Virus genome (UHGV): UHGV-0147800
DNA: 19,405 nucleotides
Reading direction: 5' to 3' (one strand)
DNA from: a virus
Positions 8,687 to 19,405 of this stretch are shown one piece after another. How positions within the stretch are numbered: the first letter of the stretch is position 1; every line of letters begins with the position of its first letter. A model generated the notes under the pieces. That model worked only from the letters and a program-made list of their open reading frames with translations, was not told where the DNA came from and did not search any database. The position numbers and the translations under genes are program-made.

Positions 8687-8819
8687 TCTTTGGGACTCCT
8701 GGCTGATTAAGTATGTCGATAAGGCGTTTCCATCCGTCACGTAATTTACGGGTGATTCGTTCAAGTAAAGATTCGGAAGGGCAGCCAGCAACAGGCCACC
8801 CTGCAATGGCATATTGCAT
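8679..8819 (-). CDS. cIII: CIII (FtsH inhibitor stabilising cII)
   Basis: ATG at 8817-8819 with SD AAGGAG. Product MQYAIAGWPVAGCPSESLLERITRKLRDGWKRLIDILNQPGVPKNG matches recalled lambda CIII over its whole length, though 46 aa versus about 54. Confidence 0.85.
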   Translation of the reverse strand: MQYAIAGWPVAGCPSESLLERITRKLRDGWKRLIDILNQPGVPKNG

Positions 8820-8880
8820 GGTGTGCTCCTTATTTATACATAACGAAAAACGCCTCGAGTGAAGCGTTATTGGTATGCAT

Positions 8881-8906
8881 ATAAAAAGGCCCTCACACTG
8901 GAGGGC
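8881..8906 (-). terminator. Putative intrinsic terminator (tL-like) between the 207-aa gene and cIII
   Basis: Minus strand reads GCCCTC-CAGTGT-GAGGGC followed by CTTTTTAT. Confidence 0.5.
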
Positions 8907-9040
8907 AAAGAAGATTTCCAATAATCAGAACAAGTCGGCTCCTGTTTGGTTACGAGCGACATTGCTCCGTGTATTCACTCGTTGGAATGAATACACAGTG
9001 CAGTGTTTATTCTGTTGTTTATGCCAAAAATAAAGGACGA

Positions 9041-9664
9041 TTATGCGACCTCGGAAGGAAGTCCAATCATCTTATTCAAATCTTCTACCCGTAAAGCAGG
9101 AAGTGCTGTACTTGCTTTATCTGCTTCTTTTGGTAGCAACTCTTTGCTTTCAGGCCAAACTTCAATAAGTCGCTTAACTGTTGTGACTGAGTTCAAAGCA
9201 GCCCATACATTTGATTCGATATCCTTTTTCTTGGCTTCAAGTTTTTGTTGCAATGCGCAGATTTCATCAAACCTTTTTGTTATTTCGTGTTCTGCGCTAA
9301 ACATGCATTTATCTTTGGTCGGAGTAGGGAGCAATATATCTTCGCCGTTGCCGTCTTTCCCATATGAATACCAGCCAACCCTTCTGCCAGATACAGTCAG
9401 ATAAATTGAAGTTGAACGGGCATCGCATGAGTAAAATGAACATCCCAGCTTTTCAAGTTCTTCGCTTATAGCCATTAACTTGGATGATAACTGATCCACT
9501 TCCTCAGTTTTCTTTTTACCGCCAAACGCAACAACTCTGGCGTCAAGTGCAAGCTGGTTCTTTAACTTTGTTACTTCTTCAAGCTCAGTGAAAACCCCAG
9601 ATTTAATTAAAGCGTTACGAGCGATTTTCTCTTTCATTCTCGTAGTTAAGCGGATTGATGACAT
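9041..9664 (-). CDS. Hypothetical protein (207 aa) in the ral/sieB-equivalent slot just downstream of N
   Basis: ATG at 9662-9664 preceded by GAGAGGAA. Product MSSIRLTTRMKEKIARNALIKSGVF... is soluble with no recognisable motif. The track ORF extends 20 codons further upstream without an RBS. Confidence 0.7.
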   Translation of the reverse strand: MSSIRLTTRMKEKIARNALIKSGVFTELEEVTKLKNQLALDARVVAFGGKKKTEEVDQLSSKLMAISEELEKLGCSFYSCDARSTSIYLTVSGRRVGWYSYGKDGNGEDILLPTPTKDKCMFSAEHEITKRFDEICALQQKLEAKKKDIESNVWAALNSVTTVKRLIEVWPESKELLPKEADKASTALPALRVEDLNKMIGLPSEVA

Positions 9665-9675
9665 ATTAATTCCTC

Positions 9676-9998
9676 TCAAATAAGTGGTTTGCTGCCTAAT
9701 TTCATTTTCTGGCGACCAACACAAGTCATCTTGCTGTCAGTTGTTTGGATTTCCGGTAGCCTGCCGCGTAAAGAGCTACATTTGGAAGACAAGTTGAGCC
9801 TTCATATTTTCTGGTCAACGTTGTCAGTGTTATTACTTCTGCTCTCATTGCTGGTTTGCGCTTGCATTGCAAGACCACTCGAGAGGGGGTTGGTCTGTGT
9901 AGCTTGTCGGAGCTAATCGCCTCCTGACTTTGCAGGTTTGCGCGACGAGCTCTACGACGAGAAGCTGAGGTGCCTTTAAATTCTGTTTTTCTGGACAT
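9676..9998 (-). pseudogene. N: N-like transcription antiterminator, apparently frameshifted
   Basis: ATG at 9996-9998 with SD GGGAGGAA. N-terminus MSRKTEFKGTSASRRRARRANLQSQ carries an arginine-rich motif like lambda N. The in-frame ORF stops at 9726, but the conserved N C-terminus (MTCVGRQKMKLGSKPLI, compare lambda GITCSGRQKIKGKSIPLI) is encoded in the -1 frame ending at TGA 9676-9678, just before the RBS of the next gene. Confidence 0.55.
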
Positions 9999-10096
9999 AG
10001 ATTCCTCCCGAATAAACTTTGGTGATGCAATCTCGAAGCTCCTCCTGAGACGGTTGCTTCGGCATTGCATCCCACAGCTTATGTGGTTGGGTGATC

Positions 10097-10142
10097 TGGC
10101 TTTTCAGCCACGTAGTCGAGAGTCGACGTTGTTTAAAGAGCC
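10097..10142 (-). promoter_or_regulatory. nutL (boxA plus boxB-like hairpin)
   Basis: Minus strand has boxA-like GGCTCTTTAAAC (plus 10131-10142), an intervening hairpin GTCGA-CTC-TCGAC, and a boxB-like hairpin TGGCT-GAAA-AGCCA (plus 10097-10110). Same three-part layout as downstream of cro. Confidence 0.5.
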
Positions 10143-10189
10143 TGCCAATCTTTTCCGTTTGGCTACCAGCGTCCTGCTGATGGAAATAA

Positions 10190-10250
10190 TAGTCACATAT
10201 TGTGATTTAATGGTCAATCACAAAATGTGTAAAATAAGGGTGTGACACGT
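10190..10250 (-). promoter_or_regulatory. oL/pL operator-promoter region
   Basis: 22-bp palindrome TGTGATTtaatggtcAATCACA at 10201-10222 and motif AATCACAAAATGTGT, both shared with the cI-cro intergenic region. Candidate leftward promoter TTGACC-17-GACTAT (compare lambda pL TTGACA/GATACT). Confidence 0.5.
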
Positions 10251-10470
10251 TATGTGTATGATTTTTTTGTGTAAATAGTTTTCCCCGCGATGGGTTTGCT
10301 TACTTAAGGCGGGGGAAACAGCAGGATGGTGTGCTGAAAAGTTCGAAAAACGAGCGAAGTAGGTGGTGACGAGATGGCGGGATATGGGAGTTGTATTAAG
10401 AATTATAGTAATTTAATCAGAGGCTTGGGCTGGCTGGCAGGTGCTGTCCTGATAGTTATGTGCAGGCAAC

Positions 10471-10497
10471 AAAAAACCCGGCGCGGAAGCCGGGTTA
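10471..10497 (-). terminator. Intrinsic terminator ending the cI-orf144-orf206 transcription unit
   Basis: Minus strand reads CCCGGC-TTCC-GCGCCGGG followed by TTTTTTGTTG, 5 nt after the orf206 stop. Confidence 0.65.
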
Positions 10498-10502
10498 ATG
10501 CG

Positions 10503-11123
10503 TTAATGCTGGGGAGTGATTTTTTTGTTGTCTGTTGGCTGGGTATTTTGTGGCGGCGCTTGCAAAGTGGAAGGCTGTTGCAAAGGTGCGTGGTCTGACT
10601 TTAAAGCTGATACCAGCCCGGGAATCGCAACTATTACAGCGATAATGACACTAAAAATGGCTAATCGTATAGAAATACCCGACTGAACACCACTAATTGC
10701 GGTATTAACCCCTGTTATTTGTCCTTGAATTCCTTCGAATCTCCCATTAATTGCTTTTATATCGCCAGCAGCGCTATCCATCTTTCCATCGATCTTGGAC
10801 GATAGAGAGCTTATGGCTGCATTAAGTGATGCAAATTGGACATTAACGCTTTCACGAGATAGAGCCATGTCAGCCCTAATGGAGGAAGCAATAGACTCCA
10901 TCTCTGCTTTATTAGCAGCTAAGCGAGCATCAAGTTCCTCTCTGCTGATCGTTCCCACTTCTTCCTCCGTTTGTGGCGGTTTTATGTAATTATTTTGCAC
11001 CTTGGTGGGAGAATTATCAAATTCAGCCTCAAAATCAGAACCGCCAACAACCTTCAACCTCCGGCTTTCAGATATGTTGGTGTCTTGCTTTCCATGATTA
11101 TTTAAATTACTGTCGTCACTCAT
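10503..11123 (-). CDS. Hypothetical coiled-coil protein with a single C-proximal transmembrane helix (206 aa)
   Basis: ATG at 11121-11123 overlapping the stop of the upstream gene (ATGA). Polar N-terminus, long heptad-like region, hydrophobic helix LAIFSVIIAVIVAIPGLVSAL, then a Pro/Gln-rich tail. AT-rich compared with cI. Confidence 0.75.
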   Translation of the reverse strand: MSDDSNLNNHGKQDTNISESRRLKVVGGSDFEAEFDNSPTKVQNNYIKPPQTEEEVGTISREELDARLAANKAEMESIASSIRADMALSRESVNVQFASLNAAISSLSSKIDGKMDSAAGDIKAINGRFEGIQGQITGVNTAISGVQSGISIRLAIFSVIIAVIVAIPGLVSALKSDHAPLQQPSTLQAPPQNTQPTDNKKITPQH

Positions 11124-11554
11124 AATAGCTCTACGGTGAAAAATGATTCATTTTTATGAAGTTCATTTTTAGGGTCTTCATTATCTTGCAATATCCCTAT
11201 AACACTATACAGCCCTTTAGCTGGGACCCTAATTTCTTTCAATGTTACTATTACCTGTCCGCCAACCCCTGTTTCAAAATGGCTATCTTTCGTATCGATG
11301 AAAAGTGAAACTGATTCCGAAGAGCCGTCAGGGAATTGAATTTCCTCACCTTTTTTTATAATTAGGTGCGCGGGGATTACCATAATACCCAAATTATATC
11401 TTGAATTTGGTTTCAACCCGATCATACCAACCCTGAAATCAATCGATAGCCGCGCAGGAAATTCATTGCATGTAAAATTAAGCGTCGGTTGGTTGGGTTC
11501 TTCGCTGCTATCAAATGGGGTTATAAAAGATATTCTTTCTAAATTAAGTGCCAT
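11120..11554 (-). CDS. Hypothetical soluble protein (144 aa), first gene after cI
   Basis: ATG at 11552-11554 with strong SD (GCAGGAGAATTT-ATG). An alternative in-frame ATG at 11606-11608 overlaps the cI stop and would give 162 aa. No recognisable motif. Confidence 0.7.
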   Translation of the reverse strand: MALNLERISFITPFDSSEEPNQPTLNFTCNEFPARLSIDFRVGMIGLKPNSRYNLGIMVIPAHLIIKKGEEIQFPDGSSESVSLFIDTKDSHFETGVGGQVIVTLKEIRVPAKGLYSVIGILQDNEDPKNELHKNESFFTVELL

Positions 11555-11604
11555 AAATTCTCCTGCATCGCTGTATGCTCTACGAGCATCTCTGCGACCA
11601 TCCA

Positions 11605-12252
11605 TCATCCAAACGTCTCTTCAGGCCACTGAGCCTTAACTACCTTGCCTATGATGCGGCATGTGTGATCGCAGTCCAGGGTTCTGTATGCCGGATTCAA
11701 TGGAACCAAGTAACTAACCCCTGCATCCTTCTCATACTTCTTGAACGTTGCCTCTGAATCACCATTTGCAGAAGCCACGCAGAAATCCCCAGACTCTACC
11801 GGCTCGGCCGGATCAACGAGTATCAGCATACCCTCAGGAAAACTCGGCCTTACGCCCTGTGGCGCAGTCATAGAATGGCCTTTCACCTCAAGCCAGAAAG
11901 CTTTTTCGCTGGCTTTTGTGGTCGTTGGGACCCATGCCTTTGCATCGCTTGCTGTGTAGCTTCCAACCTCCGAAAACGGCCCGGCCTGCACTGAAGAAAA
12001 TAACGGGTACTCATATTGGCGAAATACAGCGTCTGAATCCTCGCCAAACATTATTTTTGCCGGAGATACGCCGAGTGCCGCCCCAAGAACCAGCGCGTCA
12101 TCCGCGCTAACCTTTCTTGTTCCTAACTCGTAGTTCCCCAGGCGTGAAGGCGCAGCCCAGCCGCAAAGCTTGGCCAATTGAGCCTGGCTAAGTCCTTTAG
12201 CTTCTCTAAGGGACTTGATCCTTTCCCCGATAATTTCATGCATCGTTTTCAT
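11605..12252 (-). CDS. cI: CI-type prophage repressor (HTH plus LexA-like S24 autocleavage domain)
   Basis: 215-aa ORF with N-terminal HTH ([22 protein letters not shown]) and C-terminal S24 peptidase features (Ala-Gly site in VQAGPF, GHSM serine motif, conserved lysine in IGKVVKAQW). Divergent from cro across an operator region. Confidence 0.9.
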
Positions 12253-12360
12253 CCTTTAAATGTAACACGCAACGTGATTGAACTCTGTACACGAATTGAG
12301 GTTGACTGTTAATCACAAATTGTGTGTAATGGGTGTGTGATTAATACTAGGGAGACCGCA
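12253..12360. promoter_or_regulatory. oR operator region with PR (rightward) and presumed PRM (leftward)
   Basis: PR candidate TTGACT (12302-12307), 17-bp spacer, TGTAAT (12325-12330), then SD GGGAGA before cro. Operator-like half-sites AATCACA/TGTGATT and AATCACAAATTGTGTG recur here and in oL. Confidence 0.6.
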
Positions 12361-12579
12361 ATGAACAAAATTGCCCAGCAGCGAAAAAAAATCGGAGTTT
12401 CGCAAGCTGTACTGGCTTCGGCAATTGGTTGGGGGCAATCCCGCATCGCCAACTATGAGCTGAATATCCGTACTCCTAGACTTAACGATTGCCGAAAGAT
12501 CGTAGAAGGCCTCAGGAAGTTAGGGTGCCAATGTTCTTTGGATGATGTTTTCCCTCCATCCAGTAACAAAGCCGCCTAA
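12361..12579 (+). CDS. cro: Cro-like HTH repressor
   Basis: ATG at 12361 with SD GGGAGA. 72-aa product MNKIAQQRKKIGVSQAVLASAIGWGQSRIANYE... carries an HTH. The track ORF extends upstream through the promoter from a GTG without an RBS. Confidence 0.8.
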   Translation: MNKIAQQRKKIGVSQAVLASAIGWGQSRIANYELNIRTPRLNDCRKIVEGLRKLGCQCSLDDVFPPSSNKAA

Positions 12580-12587
12580 GCAGTACC

Positions 12588-12633
12588 CGCTCTTTGTAAC
12601 AACGGACATTCGTCCTACGTCGCTGAAAAGCGA
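12588..12633 (+). promoter_or_regulatory. nutR (boxA plus boxB-like hairpin)
   Basis: boxA CGCTCTTTG (12588-12596), small hairpin GGAC-ATTC-GTCC (12604-12615), boxB-like hairpin TCGCT-GAAA-AGCGA (12620-12633). A further hairpin ATGCGT-TTCC-ACGCAT follows (tR1 region). Confidence 0.5.
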
Positions 12634-12689
12634 GTCCCAAGATATCTGACCAACTAAGGCCATATGCGTTTCCACGCATACCTTTCAAC

Positions 12690-12745
12690 TAACTATTCAC
12701 TATTGGAAATATTAAGAAATGACACAAACAAGTTACAGCAAACTA
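12690..12745 (-). promoter_or_regulatory. Possible pRE-like cII-activated promoter
   Basis: Minus strand inside the cII 5' end reads TTGC-TGTAAC-TTGT, similar to the recalled lambda cII site TTGC-N6-TTGC. No clear -10 was identified. Confidence 0.25.
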
Positions 12746-13018
12746 TCCCAGCGCGACGTTGATCGCGCAGAAACGGATTTACTCATCAACCTGTCAACGC
12801 TTACCCAGCGCGGTCTGGCAAAGATGATTGGCTGTCATGAATCGAAGATAAGCAGAACGGACTGGAGATTTATTGCTTCGGTCTTGTGTGCTTTCGGAAT
12901 GGCATCAGACATCAGTCCGATTAGCAGGGCTTTTAAGTATGCGCTTGATGGACTCACCAATAAAAAACGCCCGGTGTGCAAGACCGAGCGTTCTGAACAA
13001 ATCCAGATGGAATTCTGA
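12719..13018 (+). CDS. cII: CII transcriptional activator
   Basis: 99-aa ORF whose C-terminus ...LDGLTNKKRPVCKTERSEQIQMEF matches recalled lambda CII (...TNKKRPAATERSEQIQMEF). Confidence 0.9.
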   Translation: MTQTSYSKLSQRDVDRAETDLLINLSTLTQRGLAKMIGCHESKISRTDWRFIASVLCAFGMASDISPISRAFKYALDGLTNKKRPVCKTERSEQIQMEF

Positions 13019-13041
13019 GGTCATTACTGGATCAATCCACA
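12962..13041 (-). ncRNA. OOP-like antisense RNA overlapping the cII 3' end
   Basis: Minus-strand promoter candidate TTGAGT-17-CATAAT near the O start and a minus-strand terminator in the cII 3' end (CGCTCGGT-CTTGCAC-ACCGGGCG then TTTTTTATT). Predicted transcript about 78 nt, as for lambda OOP. Confidence 0.45.
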
Positions 13042-13050
13042 GGAGTCATT

Positions 13051-13905
13051 ATGACAAATACAGCAAAAATACTCAACTTCTGCAGAGGTAACTTTGCCAA
13101 ACAGGAGCGTAATGTGGCAGATCTCGATGATGGTTACGCCAGACTATCAAATATGCTGCTTGAGGCTTATTCAGGCGCAGATCTGACCAAGCGACAGTTT
13201 AAAGTGCTGCTTGCCATTCTGCGTAAAACCTATGGGTGGAATAAACCAATGGACAGAATCACCGATTCTCAACTTAGCGAGATTACAAAGTTACCCGTCA
13301 AACGGTGCAATGAAGCCAAGTTAGAACTCGTCAGAATGAATATTATCAAGCAGCAAGGCGGCATGTTTGGACCAAACAAAAACATCTCAGAATGGTGCAT
13401 CCCTCAAAACGAGGGAAAATCCCCTAAAACGAGGGATAAAACATCCCTCAAATTGGGGGATTGCTATCCCTCAAAACAGGGGGACACAAAAGACACTATT
13501 ACAAAAGAAAAAAGAAATAATAAAAACACTATGTCCGAAAGTGTCCGGACGGAGTGTGAAAAATCATCTGACCGTCACGAAGAAACCGACAAGGCATTCG
13601 AGGAAATATTCTGGTGTGCAGGCATGCGGAAAGCCGGGAAAAAAAACGCAGCTTCGGCATTCAGAACACAGTTCAGGGAATGGCGTAAAACTACCAGGGG
13701 TACGGCAAGCGAGTTTGCCACGATGCTGGCAGAAGACATCGCATGCAGGAATGGTAAGCAGTTCGGATTCGACAGGTTGTTACCATCGAGCTACCTGAAC
13801 GGTCAGCGCTGGAACGACGAGAAGCCAGAAACTATTCAACCACAATCCAAACCATCATCCGCAATCACCGTATCGAAAACTGGCTACGTGTTTTTCGACA
13901 GGTGA
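13051..13905 (+). CDS. O: Replication initiator O (lambda O family, iteron-binding)
   Basis: 284-aa ORF with lambda O-like N-terminal domain, and the ori iterons lie inside the gene as in lambda. Confidence 0.9.
   Translation: MTNTAKILNFCRGNFAKQERNVADLDDGYARLSNMLLEAYSGADLTKRQFKVLLAILRKTYGWNKPMDRITDSQLSEITKLPVKRCNEAKLELVRMNIIKQQGGMFGPNKNISEWCIPQNEGKSPKTRDKTSLKLGDCYPSKQGDTKDTITKEKRNNKNTMSESVRTECEKSSDRHEETDKAFEEIFWCAGMRKAGKKNAASAFRTQFREWRKTTRGTASEFATMLAEDIACRNGKQFGFDRLLPSSYLNGQRWNDEKPETIQPQSKPSSAITVSKTGYVFFDR
13399..13530. repeat. Replication origin: four iterons plus AT-rich region
   Basis: Four about 19-bp palindromic iterons (ATCCCTCAAAACGAGGGA, TCCCCTAAAACGAGGGA, ATCCCTCAAATTGGGGGA, ATCCCTCAAAACAGGGGGA) at 13399-13485, then an A/T-rich stretch ACAAAAGAAAAAAGAAATAATAAAAACAC. 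Confidence 0.85.
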
Positions 13906-13908
13906 ACC

Positions 13909-14016
13909 ATGAAATCAAAAATCAAATCGTTACTGGTCGCTGGTTATAACCACGGCTGGTTAAGTATTTCGTTTGTCGATTTCTGGTTTAAAAATCTCAA
14001 TCTGAGGGAATCATGA
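13909..14016 (+). CDS. Small ORF (35 aa) between O and the primase-helicase
   Basis: ATG at 13909 preceded by AGGTGA (AGGTGAACC-ATG). Product MKSKIKSLLVAGYNHGWLSISFVDFWFKNLNLRES. Its stop overlaps the primase-helicase start (ATGA). Could instead be non-coding leader. Confidence 0.3.
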   Translation: MKSKIKSLLVAGYNHGWLSISFVDFWFKNLNLRES

Positions 14017-15893
14017 CTCCAAGTGAACTTAGCTACCTGCTTTGGGCGCAGGTTGACAGGGTGGCTCCACACCTGTTGCCAAACGGCAAGAAAGAGGGGC
14101 ATGAGTGGGTTGCCGGTAACGTCAACGGTGACAAGGGAAACAGCCTTAAGGTCAACCTTAGCGGCAAGAAAAAATGGGCTGATTTCGCTGAGGGAGACGG
14201 CGGTGACATGCTTGATTTATGGATGGCATGTCGTGGAATTAACCTGCATCAGGCTATGCAGGAAGCGAAAGCATTTCTCGGTATCAAGGATGACGATCAT
14301 CATTTCGATGCCAGACGTGAGAAGAAATTCTCCAGACCTGATCGCAAGAAAATAGCCCGCTACGTTACCAGAACAGAATCCCATCTTGAGTACCTGCAAT
14401 CGCGTGGCATATCGCCAGAAGTCGTAAAGCGCTACGAGGTTGTCAGCGGCAAGGTGTGGAATGGAGAACGAGAACTTGATGCACTGGTGCTTCCGTACAA
14501 ACGCGATGGTGAGTTGTTGCAGGTCAAGCGAATCAGCACTGAGCGCCCGGACGGGAAGAAAGTCATTATGGCAGAAGGTGATTGCGAACCTTGCCTGTTC
14601 GGATGGCAGGCTCTGGACGCTGGCGTGAGGGCGGTTGTGCTTTGTGAAGGCGAAATTGATTGTATGAGCTATGCGCAATACGGCATCTCGGCGTTATCCG
14701 TGCCGTTTGGTGGCGGGAAAGGCGCTAAGCAACAGTGGATTGAGTTTGAGTATCACAACCTCGACAGGTTTGAGGAAATATTCATCTCGATGGACGTTGA
14801 TGATGTTGGTCGTGAAGCCGCAAGGGAAATCGCAAGCCGACTCGGTGAACATCGTTGCCGTCTTGTTACTCTGCCGTACAAAGACATCAACGAATGCCTG
14901 ATGAACGGTGTTACCGAGGATGAAATCTGGCAGTACATCGGCACGGCATCCTACTTCGATCCTGAAGAACTCTACAGCGCGCGAGAGTTTTACCAGGACA
15001 CTATCAACGCTTTCTACGGCAAGCAGCAGTATCTGTTTAATCCACCGTGGGAATCTCTGGCAGATAAATTCCAGTTCCGTGAGGCAGAGTTGACGCTGGT
15101 CAATGGTGTGAACGGTCACGGAAAAACGGAGGTTGTCGGGCATATGGCACTTGAGGCAATGCGTCAGGGTGTGAAGACGTGCATCGCGTCACTTGAGCTG
15201 AAGCCTGGTATTCTCCTTAAGCGCCTTACCCGTCAGGCGACGTGCTGCAAGATGCCGCCAGTGCTGGAAATTGACTCTGCATTTAAATTTTATGACGAAA
15301 GACTTTGGGTGTTTGGCCTGACCGGAACGGCGAAAGCCGACAGGCTGATCGAAATATTCGACTACGCTCGCCGCCGATACGGGATCCAGTTATTCATCAT
15401 CGACAGCCTGATGAAATGTGGCATAGGCGACGATGACTATAACGGGCAGAAGGCGTTTGTTGACTCGATTTGCGACTTCAAAAACAAAACAAACTCCCAC
15501 GTCATTCTCGTTACTCACTCGCGAAAAGGAGACAGCGAAGAAAAACCAACCGGGAAAATGGACGTAAAAGGCTCTGGAGCGATAACAGACCTGACAGACA
15601 ACCTTTTCATCATCTGGCGTAACAAGGCTCGCGAGAGAGCGTTACAGAGAGTTCAGAGTGGTGAAAAGATGTCAGAGAAGGACGAACAGCTACTGGCGTC
15701 TCCTGCATCTGTTTTGATGCTTGAAAAACAACGTAACGGCGAAGGTTGGGAAGGTGGTGTCCCGTTGTTCCTTGACGAGCAATCGCACCAGTTCCTGCAA
15801 CTTGAATCAGGATCGCCATATAGCTACATCGCCAATATGCCGAAATCGGAATATGACGAGGCGTGGCGACAGGAAAACGTGACGGAGTATTAA
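14013..15893 (+). CDS. Bifunctional DNA primase/helicase (Toprim domain plus DnaB/RecA-like helicase domain)
   Basis: 626-aa ORF with SD GAGGGAA. N-terminal half has Toprim-like acidic motifs (LCEGEIDCMS, ISMDVDDVGRE). C-terminal half has Walker A (NGVNGHGKTE), Walker B-like (LFIIDSL) and an arginine-finger region. Occupies the position of lambda P. Confidence 0.8.
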   Translation: MTPSELSYLLWAQVDRVAPHLLPNGKKEGHEWVAGNVNGDKGNSLKVNLSGKKKWADFAEGDGGDMLDLWMACRGINLHQAMQEAKAFLGIKDDDHHFDARREKKFSRPDRKKIARYVTRTESHLEYLQSRGISPEVVKRYEVVSGKVWNGERELDALVLPYKRDGELLQVKRISTERPDGKKVIMAEGDCEPCLFGWQALDAGVRAVVLCEGEIDCMSYAQYGISALSVPFGGGKGAKQQWIEFEYHNLDRFEEIFISMDVDDVGREAAREIASRLGEHRCRLVTLPYKDINECLMNGVTEDEIWQYIGTASYFDPEELYSAREFYQDTINAFYGKQQYLFNPPWESLADKFQFREAELTLVNGVNGHGKTEVVGHMALEAMRQGVKTCIASLELKPGILLKRLTRQATCCKMPPVLEIDSAFKFYDERLWVFGLTGTAKADRLIEIFDYARRRYGIQLFIIDSLMKCGIGDDDYNGQKAFVDSICDFKNKTNSHVILVTHSRKGDSEEKPTGKMDVKGSGAITDLTDNLFIIWRNKARERALQRVQSGEKMSEKDEQLLASPASVLMLEKQRNGEGWEGGVPLFLDEQSHQFLQLESGSPYSYIANMPKSEYDEAWRQENVTEY

Positions 15894-15922
15894 ATGGCCA
15901 TCTACATCACTGAGCTAATAAC

Positions 15923-15955
15923 AGGCCTGCTGGTAATCGCAGGCCTTTTTATTTG
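15923..15955 (+). terminator. Intrinsic terminator (tR2-equivalent) after the replication genes
   Basis: Perfect 8-bp stem AGGCCTGC-TGGTAATC-GCAGGCCT followed by TTTTTATTT. Confidence 0.65.
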
Positions 15956-15982
15956 GGGGAGAGTAATTGGAGGATTTAAGAA

Positions 15983-16198
15983 ATGAGTACGATAGCTGAG
16001 CTTGTCAGGGCTAATGTTCGTGAAGAGTTGGCGCGTTGGTATCGGTATCGTTCATCGTCCAGTTTGCCGCTTGATGAGTTGTATGAGCATTCACCTGCCG
16101 CACGACGCTATCCGCGTGACCGTGTTCTTCGGCGGTTGTTCAGACTCAACAATGAGTTTCAGCGCAACAGAATAATCCGGAGTCTGGATTTAAAGTGA
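15983..16198 (+). CDS. Hypothetical protein (71 aa), Arg-rich
   Basis: ATG with SD GGAGGA 8 nt upstream. No recognisable motif. Confidence 0.55.
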   Translation: MSTIAELVRANVREELARWYRYRSSSSLPLDELYEHSPAARRYPRDRVLRRLFRLNNEFQRNRIIRSLDLK

Positions 16199-16208
16199 AG
16201 GAGTGAGC

Positions 16209-16391
16209 ATGAGCGAGCAAATATTCAGAGAGATTAAGCCACGGTTTTATCGCAAGGTAAGGGTAGTTTATCAGGACGAAAACAAGACCTGTGCATACGC
16301 CATTCATAATGGTCGGTGGTCAGTGTTCGACACCAAAAACTTCGAGAAGAACTTCGAGAGGATTAAGGGTGATGAGGAAACTAACATTTGA
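16209..16391 (+). CDS. Hypothetical protein (60 aa)
   Basis: ATG at 16209 preceded by AAGGAG. The track ORF starts 6 nt earlier at a GTG. Its 3' end overlaps the ninB start. Confidence 0.5.
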   Translation: MSEQIFREIKPRFYRKVRVVYQDENKTCAYAIHNGRWSVFDTKNFEKNFERIKGDEETNI

Positions 16392-16812
16392 ACTAAGAAG
16401 CCCCATCCATCAGCAGAACGCCATTCAAGCTATCCAGCAAATCCTTCCAGACCCAACCAAACCAATCGTAGTAAGCATTCAGGAACGCAACCGCAGCTTA
16501 GACCAGAATCGAAAGCTTTGGGCTTGCCTTGGTGACGTCTCTCGTCAGGTTGAATGGCATGGGCGCTGGCTGGATGCAGAAAGCTGGAAGTGTGTGTTTA
16601 CCGCAGCATTAAAGCAGCAGGACGTTGTTCCTAACCTTGCCGGGAATGGCTTTGTGGTAATAGGCCAGTCAACCAGCAGGATGCGTGTAAGCGAATTTGC
16701 GGAGCTATTAGAGCTTATACAGGCATTCGGTACAGAGCGTGGCGTTAAGTGGTCAGACGAAGCGCGACTGGCTCTCGAATGGAAAGCGCGATGGGGAGAC
16801 AGGGCGGCATGA
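16372..16812 (+). CDS. ninB: NinB (Orf-family recombination mediator)
   Basis: Internal ATG of the track ORF gives 146 aa [74 protein letters not shown]..., near-identical to recalled lambda NinB. Confidence 0.9.
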
Positions 16813-16991
16813 GACGACAGCGACGAAGTTTCACCGACATAATCTGCGAAAACTGCAAATACCTTCCAACGAAACGCTCCAGAAATAAACCCAAGCCAAT
16901 CCCAAAAGAATCTGACGTAAAAACCTTCAACTACACGGCTCACCTGTGGGATATCCGGTGGCTAAGACATCGTGCGAGGAAAACAAGGTGA
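16809..16991 (+). CDS. ninE: NinE
   Basis: 60-aa product [60 protein letters not shown] matches recalled lambda NinE. ATG overlaps the ninB stop. Confidence 0.8.
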
Positions 16992-17158
16992 TTGACCAAA
17001 ATCGAAGTTACGAACAAGAAAGCGTCGAGCGGGCTTTAACGTGCGCTAATTGCGGTCAGAAGCTGCATGTGCTGGAAGTTCACGTGTGTGAGCACTGCTG
17101 TGCAGAACTGATGAGCGATCCGAATAGCTCAATGTACGAGGAAGAAGACGATGAATGA
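16988..17158 (+). CDS. ninF: NinF
   Basis: Probable GTG start at 16988 giving (M)[55 protein letters not shown], which matches recalled lambda NinF. The track ORF starts at an upstream ATG (16946) inside ninE. Confidence 0.7.
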
Positions 17159-17873
17159 GTTAATAAATGGCAATGCCATCAAAATGACAAGCATTGAAAT
17201 CGCTGAGTTGGTGGGAAGTCGTCCAGATAACGTAAAAATATCAATAGAGCGCCTGGCTAAATCTGGAGTTATTCAACTTCCTGCATTGCAGGTTTTCGAA
17301 AGAATCAATAACTTAGGACTGCGCCGTAGTGTCGAGGCTTACGTCTTCGAAGGCGAACAAGGTAAGCGCGACAGCATTATTGTCGTCGCTCAGTTGTCGC
17401 CGGAATTCACCGCTCGTCTTGTTGACCGTTGGCGAGAGCTTGAAGACGCTGCGGTTAATATCCCCAAAACGCTACCAGAAGCGTTGCGCCTTGCTGCTGA
17501 TCTTGCTGAGCAGAAAATGCAACTGGAAAACCAGCTCGCAATTGCCGCACCTAAAGTTGAGTTTGCCGATCGCGTTGGCGAGGCCAGCGGAATTTTGATT
17601 GGAAACTTTGCAAAGGTTGTTGGAATTGGTCCAAACAAACTGTTTGCGTGGATGCGCGATCACAAAATCCTTATTGCTTCAGGTTCCCGGCGCAATGTGC
17701 CAATGCAGGAATATATGGATCGCGGCTATTTCACAGTGAAAGAAACAGCGGTCAACACAAATCACGGAATACAGATATCGTTCACCACAAAAATCACCGG
17801 GCGTGGTCAACAGTGGCTGACCAGAAAGCTGCTCGATAACGGAATGCTGAAAGTAACAGGGGAGGCTGCTTAA
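17151..17873 (+). CDS. Phage antirepressor-like protein (Rha/Ant N-terminal region with KilA-C-like C-terminus); possible Roi analogue
   Basis: 240-aa ORF overlapping the ninF stop. The N-terminal [35 protein letters not shown] resembles phage Rha/antirepressor DNA-binding regions. Position matches roi of HK022-type nin regions. Family call is from memory. Confidence 0.6.
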   Translation: MNELINGNAIKMTSIEIAELVGSRPDNVKISIERLAKSGVIQLPALQVFERINNLGLRRSVEAYVFEGEQGKRDSIIVVAQLSPEFTARLVDRWRELEDAAVNIPKTLPEALRLAADLAEQKMQLENQLAIAAPKVEFADRVGEASGILIGNFAKVVGIGPNKLFAWMRDHKILIASGSRRNVPMQEYMDRGYFTVKETAVNTNHGIQISFTTKITGRGQQWLTRKLLDNGMLKVTGEAA

Positions 17874-18163
17874 TGGCTAACCTACGCAAAGAAGCGCGCG
17901 GCAGAGAATGTCAGGTACGTATTTACGGCGTATGCAATGGCAATCCTGAAACTACAGTTCTGGCACATTACCGGATGGCTGGAATTTGCGGAACGGGAAT
18001 GAAACCTGACGACCTGATCGGCGCATGGGCTTGTAGTGACTGCCACGCGGAGATCGACCGACGCACAAGGATTCTCGACAACAAAGACGCCAGACTTTAC
18101 CACCTCGAAGGCGTGATCAGGACGCAGGCGATACTGCTGAAGGAGGGGAAGATTAAGTCATGA
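17873..18163 (+). CDS. YbcO-like DUF1364 protein (putative zinc-binding nuclease)
   Basis: 96-aa ORF with Cys/His pattern (C13, C21, C39, C54, C57, H58) and the ARGRECQVR...VLAHYR signature recalled for DLP12 YbcO-type proteins. Sits immediately upstream of rusA as in DLP12. Confidence 0.6.
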   Translation: MANLRKEARGRECQVRIYGVCNGNPETTVLAHYRMAGICGTGMKPDDLIGAWACSDCHAEIDRRTRILDNKDARLYHLEGVIRTQAILLKEGKIKS

Positions 18164-18537
18164 ACGAATATCAGTTTGTGCTTCCATACCCGCCGTCGGT
18201 GAACACCTACTGGCGAAGACGGGGAAGCACATATTTTGTATCAAAAGCCGGGGAGCGTTATCGCCGGGCAGTGGCGCTTATTGTTCGCCAGCAGCGGCTG
18301 AAATTAAGCCTGTCCGGAAGGTTGGCAATAAAAATTATTGCAGAACCACCGGATAAGCGCCGCCGTGACCTGGACAATATTCTGAAAGCGCCGCTGGATG
18401 CGCTGACGCATGCGGGGTTGCTAATGGACGATGAGCAGTTTGATGAAATCAATATCGTTCGTGCTCAGCCAGTATCTGGTGGACGTCTGGGGGTGAAGAT
18501 TTACCCCATAATGCTTGAAGGGCAGGTCAAAAAATGA
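18160..18537 (+). CDS. rusA: Holliday junction resolvase RusA
   Basis: 125-aa ORF containing the RusA signature region (PPDKRRRDLDNILKAPLDALTHAGLLMDDEQ). Start overlaps the upstream stop (ATGA). Confidence 0.85.
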   Translation: MNEYQFVLPYPPSVNTYWRRRGSTYFVSKAGERYRRAVALIVRQQRLKLSLSGRLAIKIIAEPPDKRRRDLDNILKAPLDALTHAGLLMDDEQFDEINIVRAQPVSGGRLGVKIYPIMLEGQVKK

Positions 18538-19355
18538 AACTGGAAGATTTACCGAAATACTACTCCCCAAAATCCCCCGGCCTGACTGATGCATCGGCCT
18601 CAACGTCGAAAGATGCGCTGAGTATCACTGATGTGATGGCCGCGCAGGGCATGACACAGAATCGGGCTGAGATGGGGTTTTCTGCGTTCCTTGGGAAAAT
18701 GGGCATTAGTATGAATGACAGAGAGCGGGCAACAGAATTGCTGACAGAATATGCACTCAGTCGGTGTGATCGCGTGGCGGCGTTAAGAAAACTCCCGGCA
18801 GAAATAAAACCGGTAGTGATGCGCATTATGGCTTCGTACGCTTTTGAGGATTATGCCCGCAGCGCAGCGAGTAAAAAGCAGTGCCCTTGTTGCTATGGGG
18901 AAAAATTTATTGAAAGCGTAGTTTTTACAAACAAGGTCCAGTATCCGGATGGTAAGCCGCCGGTATGGGCAAAGTGTACGAAAGGTGTGTATCCGTCTTA
19001 CTGGGAAGAATGGAAAAAAGTCAGGGAGGTGGTAAAAGTTGCCTGTCCGGAGTGTGGCGGAAAGGGTGAGGTTTCCACCGCCTGTAAGGATTGCCGTGGG
19101 CGTGGTGTCGCCATTCATCGTGAAGAGTCGGTAAAACGTGGTATGCCTGTTATCAGAGACTGCCAGCGTTGTGGTGGTCGTGGCTGTGAAAGACTACCAT
19201 CAACGGAGGCATTTAATGCCATATGCAAAGTGACGAGTGCTATCACGCTTGATACGTGGAAAAAATCAGTGAAACGCTTTTACGATACGTTGGTGGTTCG
19301 GTTTGACATTGAAGAGGCATGGGCGGAGCGGCAGTTAAAGAGGGTAACGCGATAG
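18534..19355 (+). CDS. Putative late-gene antiterminator (Q-like) with DnaJ-type CxxCxGxG zinc-finger repeats
   Basis: 273-aa ORF in the Q position (last gene after rusA, before a promoter-like sequence). Contains CPCCYGEK, CPECGGKG, CKDCRGRG and CQRCGGRG motifs. Family assignment is positional and not confirmed by homology. Confidence 0.5.
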   Translation: MKLEDLPKYYSPKSPGLTDASASTSKDALSITDVMAAQGMTQNRAEMGFSAFLGKMGISMNDRERATELLTEYALSRCDRVAALRKLPAEIKPVVMRIMASYAFEDYARSAASKKQCPCCYGEKFIESVVFTNKVQYPDGKPPVWAKCTKGVYPSYWEEWKKVREVVKVACPECGGKGEVSTACKDCRGRGVAIHREESVKRGMPVIRDCQRCGGRGCERLPSTEAFNAICKVTSAITLDTWKKSVKRFYDTLVVRFDIEEAWAERQLKRVTR

Positions 19356-19405
19356 TGTTGTTGATTTTTCCCGAATCTGTGGTAAATTTGCTCTAACGAT
19401 GGGCG
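19356..19405 (+). promoter_or_regulatory. Possible late promoter PR' region
   Basis: TTGATT (19361-19366), 16-bp spacer, TAAATT (19383-19388) immediately after the Q-like gene. The window ends before any qut site or terminator could be seen. Confidence 0.25.

Follow-up and report, generated by a model that had tools for sequence, protein, structure and literature searches.

A very probable lambda-family antiterminator Q with four zinc knuckles, adjacent to the late promoter of a lambdoid prophage

The Q-binding element of phage lambda lies between the -35 and -10 hexamers of the late promoter PR', and the lambda 6S transcript is about 194 nt long. This element is a 13-bp site (PMC9388147), and the helix-turn-helix of lambda Q is located in the second half of the protein body. 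The arm of lambda Q (residues 114-152) is a type I shuffled zinc ribbon with zinc bound by both of its knuckles, and residues 110-126 at the arm base touch the beta' zinc-binding domain and DNA (PMC9388147). [quoted passage not shown] The Q21 and Q82 proteins share the regulatory role and genome position of lambda Q; Q21 is described as having a structure unrelated to that of lambda Q, and none of the three Q families is reported to resemble another in sequence (PMC9388147).

The DNA analysed here, referred to below as the window, is a stretch of 19,405 nt from the virus genome UHGV-0147800. Its last gene is an open reading frame of 273 codons and a stop at 18534-19355 on the plus strand, to which all coordinates below refer. 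An earlier note, made from the sequence alone, had placed this gene at the position of Q and had drawn attention to its length of 273 aa and to four CxxC motifs. These observations are confirmed: the gene follows those for a KilAC antirepressor, YbcO and RusA, and the motifs CPCCYGEK, CPECGGKG, CKDCRGRG and CQRCGGRG are found at residues 117, 171, 184 and 210. Also upstream in the window are cI, cII, O, a Toprim/DnaB-like primase-helicase and NinB, while two ORFs adjoining cI gave no PADLOC or Pfam matches. The ATG of the gene overlaps the rusA stop codon (ATGA), which suggests translational coupling to rusA.

Comparison with the Q families, as the note had proposed, yielded a match to the lambda type and none to the other two. 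The protein matches PF03589, the lambda Q family, at 171.2 bits (cut-off 26.7; E 5e-51) and phrog_127, 'anti-termination protein Q-like', at E 8e-111, and its best match among PDB sequences is lambda Q (7UBM/7UBN, 4MO1, 7UBJ-L; phmmer E 3.8e-39), whereas the Pfam scan gave no match to Q21 (PF06530) or Q82 (PF06323) at E <= 1. The fold of lambda Q, a four-helix body with a zinc-ribbon arm, is matched as well. A Foldseek search of the model against BFVD viral models returned nothing at E <= 0.001 and only small zinc proteins. Since position, sequence and fold are all of the lambda Q type, we consider it highly probable that this gene encodes Q, the antiterminator of the late genes, in a lambdoid prophage inserted next to torS, and that the protein is a regular member of the lambda Q family. 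By homology, it would be expected to antiterminate as lambda Q does.

End to end, the sole difference between the two proteins is one insert of 66-68 aa, with the N-terminal torus segment, body, arm and C-terminal helix collinear; phmmer against 7UBM_Q pairs residues 1-113 with lambda 1-113 and residues 182-273 with lambda 116-207. The N-terminal segment (codons 1-60, 18534..18713) aligns residue for residue with lambda Q 1-60. Residues 1-44 of Q are well conserved in the window protein, G39 included, and residues 1-30 have an AF2 pLDDT of only 52-58. The first half of the helical body (codons 61-113, 18714..18872) aligns with lambda Q 61-113 and is modelled as helices with pLDDT 87-95. The insert follows (codons 114-181, 18873..19076), opposite a gap in lambda Q in both the phmmer and MAFFT alignments, and contains knuckle 1 (C117/C120, 18882-18905) and knuckle 2 (C171/C174, 19044-19067). 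The lambda-type zinc-ribbon arm (codons 182-218, 19077..19187), which aligns with lambda Q 116-152, holds knuckle 3 (C184/C187, 19083-19106) and knuckle 4 (C210/C213, 19161-19184). The second half of the body (codons 219-273, 19188..19352) aligns with lambda Q 153-207 at pLDDT 85-92, and across loci its sequence covaries with the class of promoter spacer. All family-invariant residues in the homologue alignment are present in the window protein.

Shuffling the protein produced four or more CxxC motifs in only 26 of 20000 trials, and among 110 homologues the eight knuckle cysteines vary rarely or not at all. Knuckles 3 and 4 correspond to those of lambda Q, CRDCHGTG and CGRCKGVG: C184, C187, C210 and C213, invariant in the 110 homologues, align with the lambda zinc ligands C118, C121, C144 and C147 at an identical Cys-to-Cys spacing of 26 residues, and the arm is modelled by AF2 as strand-helix-strand, like that of lambda Q (PMC9388147). 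The earlier note had taken the DnaJ-like signature to be foreign to lambda Q. This view does not stand, as two CxxCxGxG knuckles form the zinc ribbon of lambda Q itself (PMC9388147) and four are the common architecture of the family; the signature seemed foreign because lambda is the exception in its family.

In the AF2 model of the insert, knuckle 1 leads into a first strand (125-136) and a second strand (159-170) leads into knuckle 2; the loop that joins the strands is of low confidence and includes a short helix. Because two 12-residue strands are placed between these knuckles, we favor a tandem pairing (1+2, 3+4), which is supported by the natural variants, in which the loop between knuckles 1 and 2 ranges from ~55 down to ~6 aa and shrinks as one unit. 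The segment between knuckles 3 and 4 keeps the length and sequence of lambda Q, so its ends should meet as they do in lambda. Knuckles 1 and 2 would most likely form a second zinc site that clasps a long beta-hairpin beside the lambda-type ribbon formed by knuckles 3 and 4. In DnaJ the zinc topology is nested, with motifs 1+4 and 2+3 paired. Such a pairing was considered here because lambda Q has lost the stretch from knuckle 1 to knuckle 3 in register, with both alignments equivalent, but in view of the modelled strands and the lambda-like segment between knuckles 3 and 4 it appears less likely. It should be noted that we infer both zinc occupancy and pairing in the window protein, the latter from secondary structure and logic rather than from coordinates. 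On the other hand, knuckles 2 and 3 are 13 residues apart, and there is a weak match to RtpA (anti-TRAP) at E 1e-3. The zinc-binding pairs of anti-TRAP are spaced by 14 residues, close to this distance. Both the length and the sequence of the hairpin tip are hypervariable, and some natural Qs almost lack it. F125, I126, V130, F131, K134, V163 and E165 of the hairpin are invariant or nearly so in homologues.

The four-knuckle form is widespread. A public assembly collection holds the identical 273-aa protein in 4689 indexed blocks, and clusters of thousands of proteins that are 94-95% identical carry the name 'antitermination protein'; the protein is already known and abundantly annotated, and nothing exotic stands in the place of Q. 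Four knuckles are present in 79 of 80 Q homologues from loci in different species genomes, in 106 of 113 close matches and in at least 28 of the 52 full-length family representatives obtained by clustering at 50%. Knuckle 3 of these representatives frequently reads CxC; two knuckles as in lambda occur in just a handful, and one (P0190) retains knuckles 2 and 4 only. Judged from these sequences, the four-knuckle form is the norm of the family and the extra hairpin its ancestral or typical state. Literature searches turned up no account of this architecture, but their incomplete coverage makes this weak evidence of absence. The exact Q protein also occurs in several prophage backbones, including Rac/Qin-like ones with dicB.

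An informative comparison is provided by the Q of a Pectobacterium polonicum prophage (locus L055), which is 80.7% identical to lambda Q across the full 207 lambda residues and bears a 64-aa four-knuckle insert. Downstream of it stand a PR' and a spacer of the lambda type (TTGACAAGTTGAATAACATTGGGTAAATTTGAC). Because a protein this close to lambda Q still has the insert, lambda Q looks like a reduced exception that arose when the stretch from knuckle 1 to knuckle 3 was deleted in register. Across homologous loci, neither the pause element nor its spacing changes with the insert, and the class of promoter and Q-binding element, as far as these sequences indicate, is unchanged by the presence or absence of the hairpin. 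The pair formed by lambda Q and the L055 Q also argues that the site can be recognised without the hairpin. The position of the insert is at the arm base, between lambda residues 113 and 116, and the most reasonable guess is that the extra hairpin touches DNA or polymerase in an accessory role and has no part in the choice of Q-binding element.

Directly past the Q gene lies a late promoter of the PR' type, as the earlier note had proposed for the window edge, with TTGATT, TAAATT and AACGATGGG at 19361-19403. The -35 hexamer TTGATT (19361-19366), assigned by its position and its spacing to the -10, is conserved in relatives with the same Q, and the -10 hexamer TAAATT (19383-19388) is identical to that of lambda PR'. 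The 16-nt spacer TTTCCCGAATCTGTGG (19367..19382) ends in TG-G before TAAATT, so that its TG (19380-19381) forms an extended -10. A sigma-dependent pause element, AACGAT followed by GGG (AACGATGGG, 19395-19403), has the sequence and the 6-nt distance from the -10 that are found in lambda. The combination TAAATT-N6-AACGATGGG, which equals the lambda PR' -10 hexamer and pause element letter for letter, occurs once in the window, with 0 occurrences expected from 200 shuffles. A generic promoter and terminator scan of 18400-19405 returned no promoter: with matches at 8 of 12 consensus positions, PR' falls short of the cut-off of 9. It was instead assigned by direct comparison with lambda PR'. We take transcription to start at ~19395, by analogy with lambda. 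The -35-like site bound by sigma region 4 in lambda reads TTGCTC in the window and TTGACT in lambda, and this degeneracy means that details of loading may differ from lambda.

At 51 of 80 homologous loci an exact AACGATGG is found 39-77 nt past the Q stop codon; at most of the remaining loci it differs by one base. Where Q shares 55-97% identity with the window protein, the spacer that follows, TTTTCC[C/G]GAA[T/A]CTGTG, is nearly invariant; downstream of more distant Q classes the spacer differs, and the helix-turn-helix region of these Qs differs too. This near-invariance with close Qs and replacement with distant classes make TTTCCCGAATCTGTGG the candidate Q-binding element. The qut site, which the note had placed beyond the window, is for the most part inside it: the interval from -35 to -10, which in lambda contains the Q-binding element, and the pause element are both included, and only the pause position and the terminator are outside.

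The region past the window edge was read from two contigs (L093 and L094) that are 100% identical to window positions 8160-19405. Positions 1-4200 of the window are 100% identical to E. coli CE10; CE10, however, has different genes between rusA and holin and is therefore unsuitable for the downstream region. In both contigs the window end is followed by TTTTATGCCTGACGTTAGAAGATTTTTTACAC and then by the hairpin CCCGCCGCCTGGCGGG with a run of six T, a terminator situated 33-65 nt past the window end. The hairpin folds with a dG of -21.9 kcal/mol (z -2.8) and shows compensatory changes in relatives. Given a start at ~19395, this position implies a terminated leader of ~60-65 nt without Q. Past the terminator is an ORF of 65 or 89 aa, at the 3' end of which the two contigs diverge. 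One version continues with an N6/N4 DNA methyltransferase, after which the contig ends; other contigs with the same Q have, past the methyltransferase, three tRNAs (CAU, UCG, UCU), two STnc100 sRNA copies, a NanS-p-type esterase, holin, lysozyme and Rz. The other version has a YdeO/GadX-like AraC-family regulator, the same three tRNAs, lysis genes and HK97-type head genes.

The note had suggested inspecting this region for tRNAs, toxin genes and lysis genes. Its tRNAs and lysis genes are there, while neither stx genes nor a second Q were seen downstream in contigs identical to the window or in others encoding the same Q. In relatives of the window module, Q lies upstream of a tRNA / NanS-p / lysis region. 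Shiga-toxin phages carry stx in such a region downstream of Q.

By analogy with lambda, RNA polymerase would start at the adjacent PR' (~19395) and pause a few bases past the window edge, where sigma70 would rebind the -10-like AACGAT. Q would then bind the element between -35 and -10 through the helix-turn-helix of its body and its zinc-ribbon arm, with the arm base and body docking on the paused polymerase. With NusA, the N-terminal 40-60 residues would take up a ring-shaped fold that constricts the RNA exit channel and stops terminator hairpins from forming. The polymerase could in this way read through the terminator into the tRNA and lysis genes and on to terminase or head genes.

Other explanations of this locus have to be weighed against its reading as a regular Q. 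That a DnaJ-like chaperone or another zinc protein occupies the Q position, with the real Q elsewhere, is something we find scarcely credible. It draws on sub-threshold matches to the DnaJ central domain (Pfam 26.3 bits; TIGR02349 E 1e-4), but the Pfam match is below the gathering score and covers the knuckles only, the J and C-terminal DnaJ domains are absent, and the homology and fold match to lambda Q are strong from end to end. The note had named as grounds against Q a non-antiterminator homology combined with a canonical Q gene beyond this one; here the homology is to lambda Q, the identical contigs have no other Q downstream, and matches to the Q21 and Q82 families are lacking. Membership of DnaJ/Hsp40 was rejected on scores of 26.3 bits against a cut-off of 32.7 for PF00684 and 21.9 against 377 for TIGR02349, with no J or C-terminal substrate-binding domain at E <= 1. 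Membership of anti-TRAP was likewise rejected, the matches being sub-threshold and at the level of knuckles only. It is somewhat less implausible, though still very improbable, that the gene is of the right family and no longer works, a decayed or silent Q of a defective prophage. Many lambdoid prophages of E. coli are defective, and the exact protein is found in several backbones, the Rac/Qin-like ones with dicB among them. Yet the ORF is intact and apparently coupled in translation to rusA, the family-invariant residues are all kept, the immunity and replication modules of the window prophage are complete, and the exact sequence recurs in the 4689 blocks with intact PR', terminator and lysis genes.

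The explanation closest to our own, which we think unlikely but the most serious of the three, is a Q with an altered mechanism, in which the zinc hairpin reads DNA upstream of the Q-binding element, contacts nascent RNA or replaces the sigma region 4 contact, so that four-knuckle Qs would be a mechanistic variant. The insert exits exactly where the base of the lambda arm is in contact with DNA and with the beta' zinc-binding domain (PMC9388147), the hairpin residues F125, I126, V130, F131, K134, V163 and E165 are (nearly) invariant, the -35-like site for sigma region 4 is degenerate (TTGCTC vs TTGACT) and the promoter spacer is 16 nt instead of 17, all of which would suit such a variant. Against it, the bodies of the L055 and lambda Qs are ~81% identical and their PR' and spacer near-identical although one alone has the insert, the tip of the hairpin is hypervariable and in some natural Qs is all but missing, and the pause element and its spacing are unaffected by the insert. 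For a regular Q of the lambda family, a milder proposal may be considered, which we put forward only tentatively: most of the family, including the window protein, would have a second zinc-clasped beta-hairpin at the arm base, perhaps with an undescribed contact in the Q-loading or Q-loaded complex, and lambda Q would be the outlier.

We regard the annotation question as settled: the gene is to be read as Q, with its late promoter and pause element both inside the window. What is mildly new is only the absence from lambda Q, the model protein, of a module carried by most of its relatives. As the textbook protein lacks a zinc hairpin of 64-68 aa common to most of the family, structural conclusions based on lambda may overlook one contact made by the prophage Qs that are common in E. 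coli and other Enterobacterales.

Among known systems, the DnaJ/Hsp40 CR domain and B. subtilis anti-TRAP share repeated CxxCxGxG knuckles with the window protein, a likeness of motif and not of family. The J domain, G/F region and C-terminal substrate-binding domain of DnaJ/Hsp40 are absent from the window protein, and the nested zinc pairing of DnaJ differs from the probably tandem pairing (1+2, 3+4) proposed here. Lambda Q (PF03589; PDB 4MO1, 7UBJ-7UBN) resembles the window protein in its N-terminal torus segment, helical body and C-terminus, in a zinc-ribbon arm with identical Cys spacing, and in a gene directly upstream of a PR' with the same -10, AACGATGGG and spacing. It differs in lacking the 66-68 aa insert (114-181) with its two knuckles and long beta-hairpin. 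The lambda PR' spacer TATTGAATAAAATTGGG has 17 nt, whereas TTTCCCGAATCTGTGG in the window has 16 nt and an extended -10; the -35-like site before the pause element is stronger in lambda; and the terminator of the window lies ~45-65 nt from the start, unlike that of the longer 6S leader of lambda. The closest counterparts are found in the E. coli phages mEp460, Evi and vB_EcoS-640R1, which have the same four-knuckle Q architecture, PR' and terminator at ~91-93% DNA identity over rusA-Q-PR'. The four-knuckle Qs of E. coli lambdoid phages and prophages are named 'antitermination protein' in RefSeq and, in one phage record, 'quuQ'. They show no difference of substance from the window protein, and what varies among them is the prophage backbone and the cargo past the first small ORF.

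The torS gene (window 50-2794, minus strand) and the adjoining integrase gene (2889-3962, minus strand) are both 100% identical to those of E. coli O7:K1 CE10, whose prophage occupies the same site. Window 1-4200 was set against CE10 (NC_017646.1 1085795-1089994 and 1104825-1106673), and in the CE10 prophage the stretch from rusA to the holin gene carries, in place of the Q of the window, a pair of hypothetical genes with products of 47 and 204 aa. Prophages that are otherwise related have exchanged the Q/PR' module.

The contigs L093 and L094, each with 100% identity to window 8160-19405, part at locus position 11613, about 367 nt beyond the window end, where the small ORF that comes first after PR' has its 3' end. 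In one of them a DNA methyltransferase gene follows, at which the contig ends; the other has in its place a YdeO/GadX-like AraC regulator, then three tRNAs, lysis genes and HK97-type head genes. This divergence is a sharp mosaic junction within the late operon. Also outside the window, L094 (11600-11660) and locus L002 (8605-8650) hold a stretch that partly echoes the PR' core (TTTGTGGTAAATGGGCGG versus CTGTGGTAAATTTGCTCTAACGATGGGCG), in both cases 3' of the small ORF that follows PR' and of its terminator; it could be a chance resemblance, what is left of a second PR', or a scar that recombination left at the mosaic junction. The same Q/PR' as in the window also drives late regions with members of the sRNA family STnc100, of which locus L086 has two copies (11821-12011 and 12289-12498; Rfam RF02076, 136 and 165 bits) between a tRNA cluster and a NanS-p esterase gene.

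Within the Q family, six representatives (P0197, P0200, P0203, P0204, P0209 and P0219) have only knuckles 2-4 and the C-terminal body half in common, with unrelated N-termini and homology that begins near residue 164 of the window Q, and another, P0190, retains only knuckles 2 and 4. These chimeric representatives and P0190 might help in telling which knuckles pair. The Q of a Pectobacterium polonicum prophage (L055:5001-5960), which has a lambda-type PR' on its 3' side, is 80.7% identical to lambda Q across all 207 lambda residues, but differs in an additional 64-aa insert with four knuckles. Because so close a relative keeps the insert, lambda Q looks like the common architecture with an in-register deletion between knuckles 1 and 3.

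Directly downstream of cI, two minus-strand ORFs of 162 aa (11120-11608) and 206 aa (10503-11123) occupy the position of rexAB/sieB-type exclusion genes. Neither has a match in Pfam or PADLOC, and they match only PHROGs of unknown function (phrog_5893 and phrog_5820); the C-terminal segment of the 206-aa product is hydrophobic. Since an N-like early antiterminator gene is present too (9726-10070, minus strand; phrog_271, E 1e-24), the prophage has both lambda-style antitermination systems. Its replication module, in contrast to that of lambda, combines an O-like initiator (13051-13905, plus strand) with a 626-aa Toprim and DnaB-like primase-helicase (14013-15893, plus strand) rather than a P-type helicase loader.
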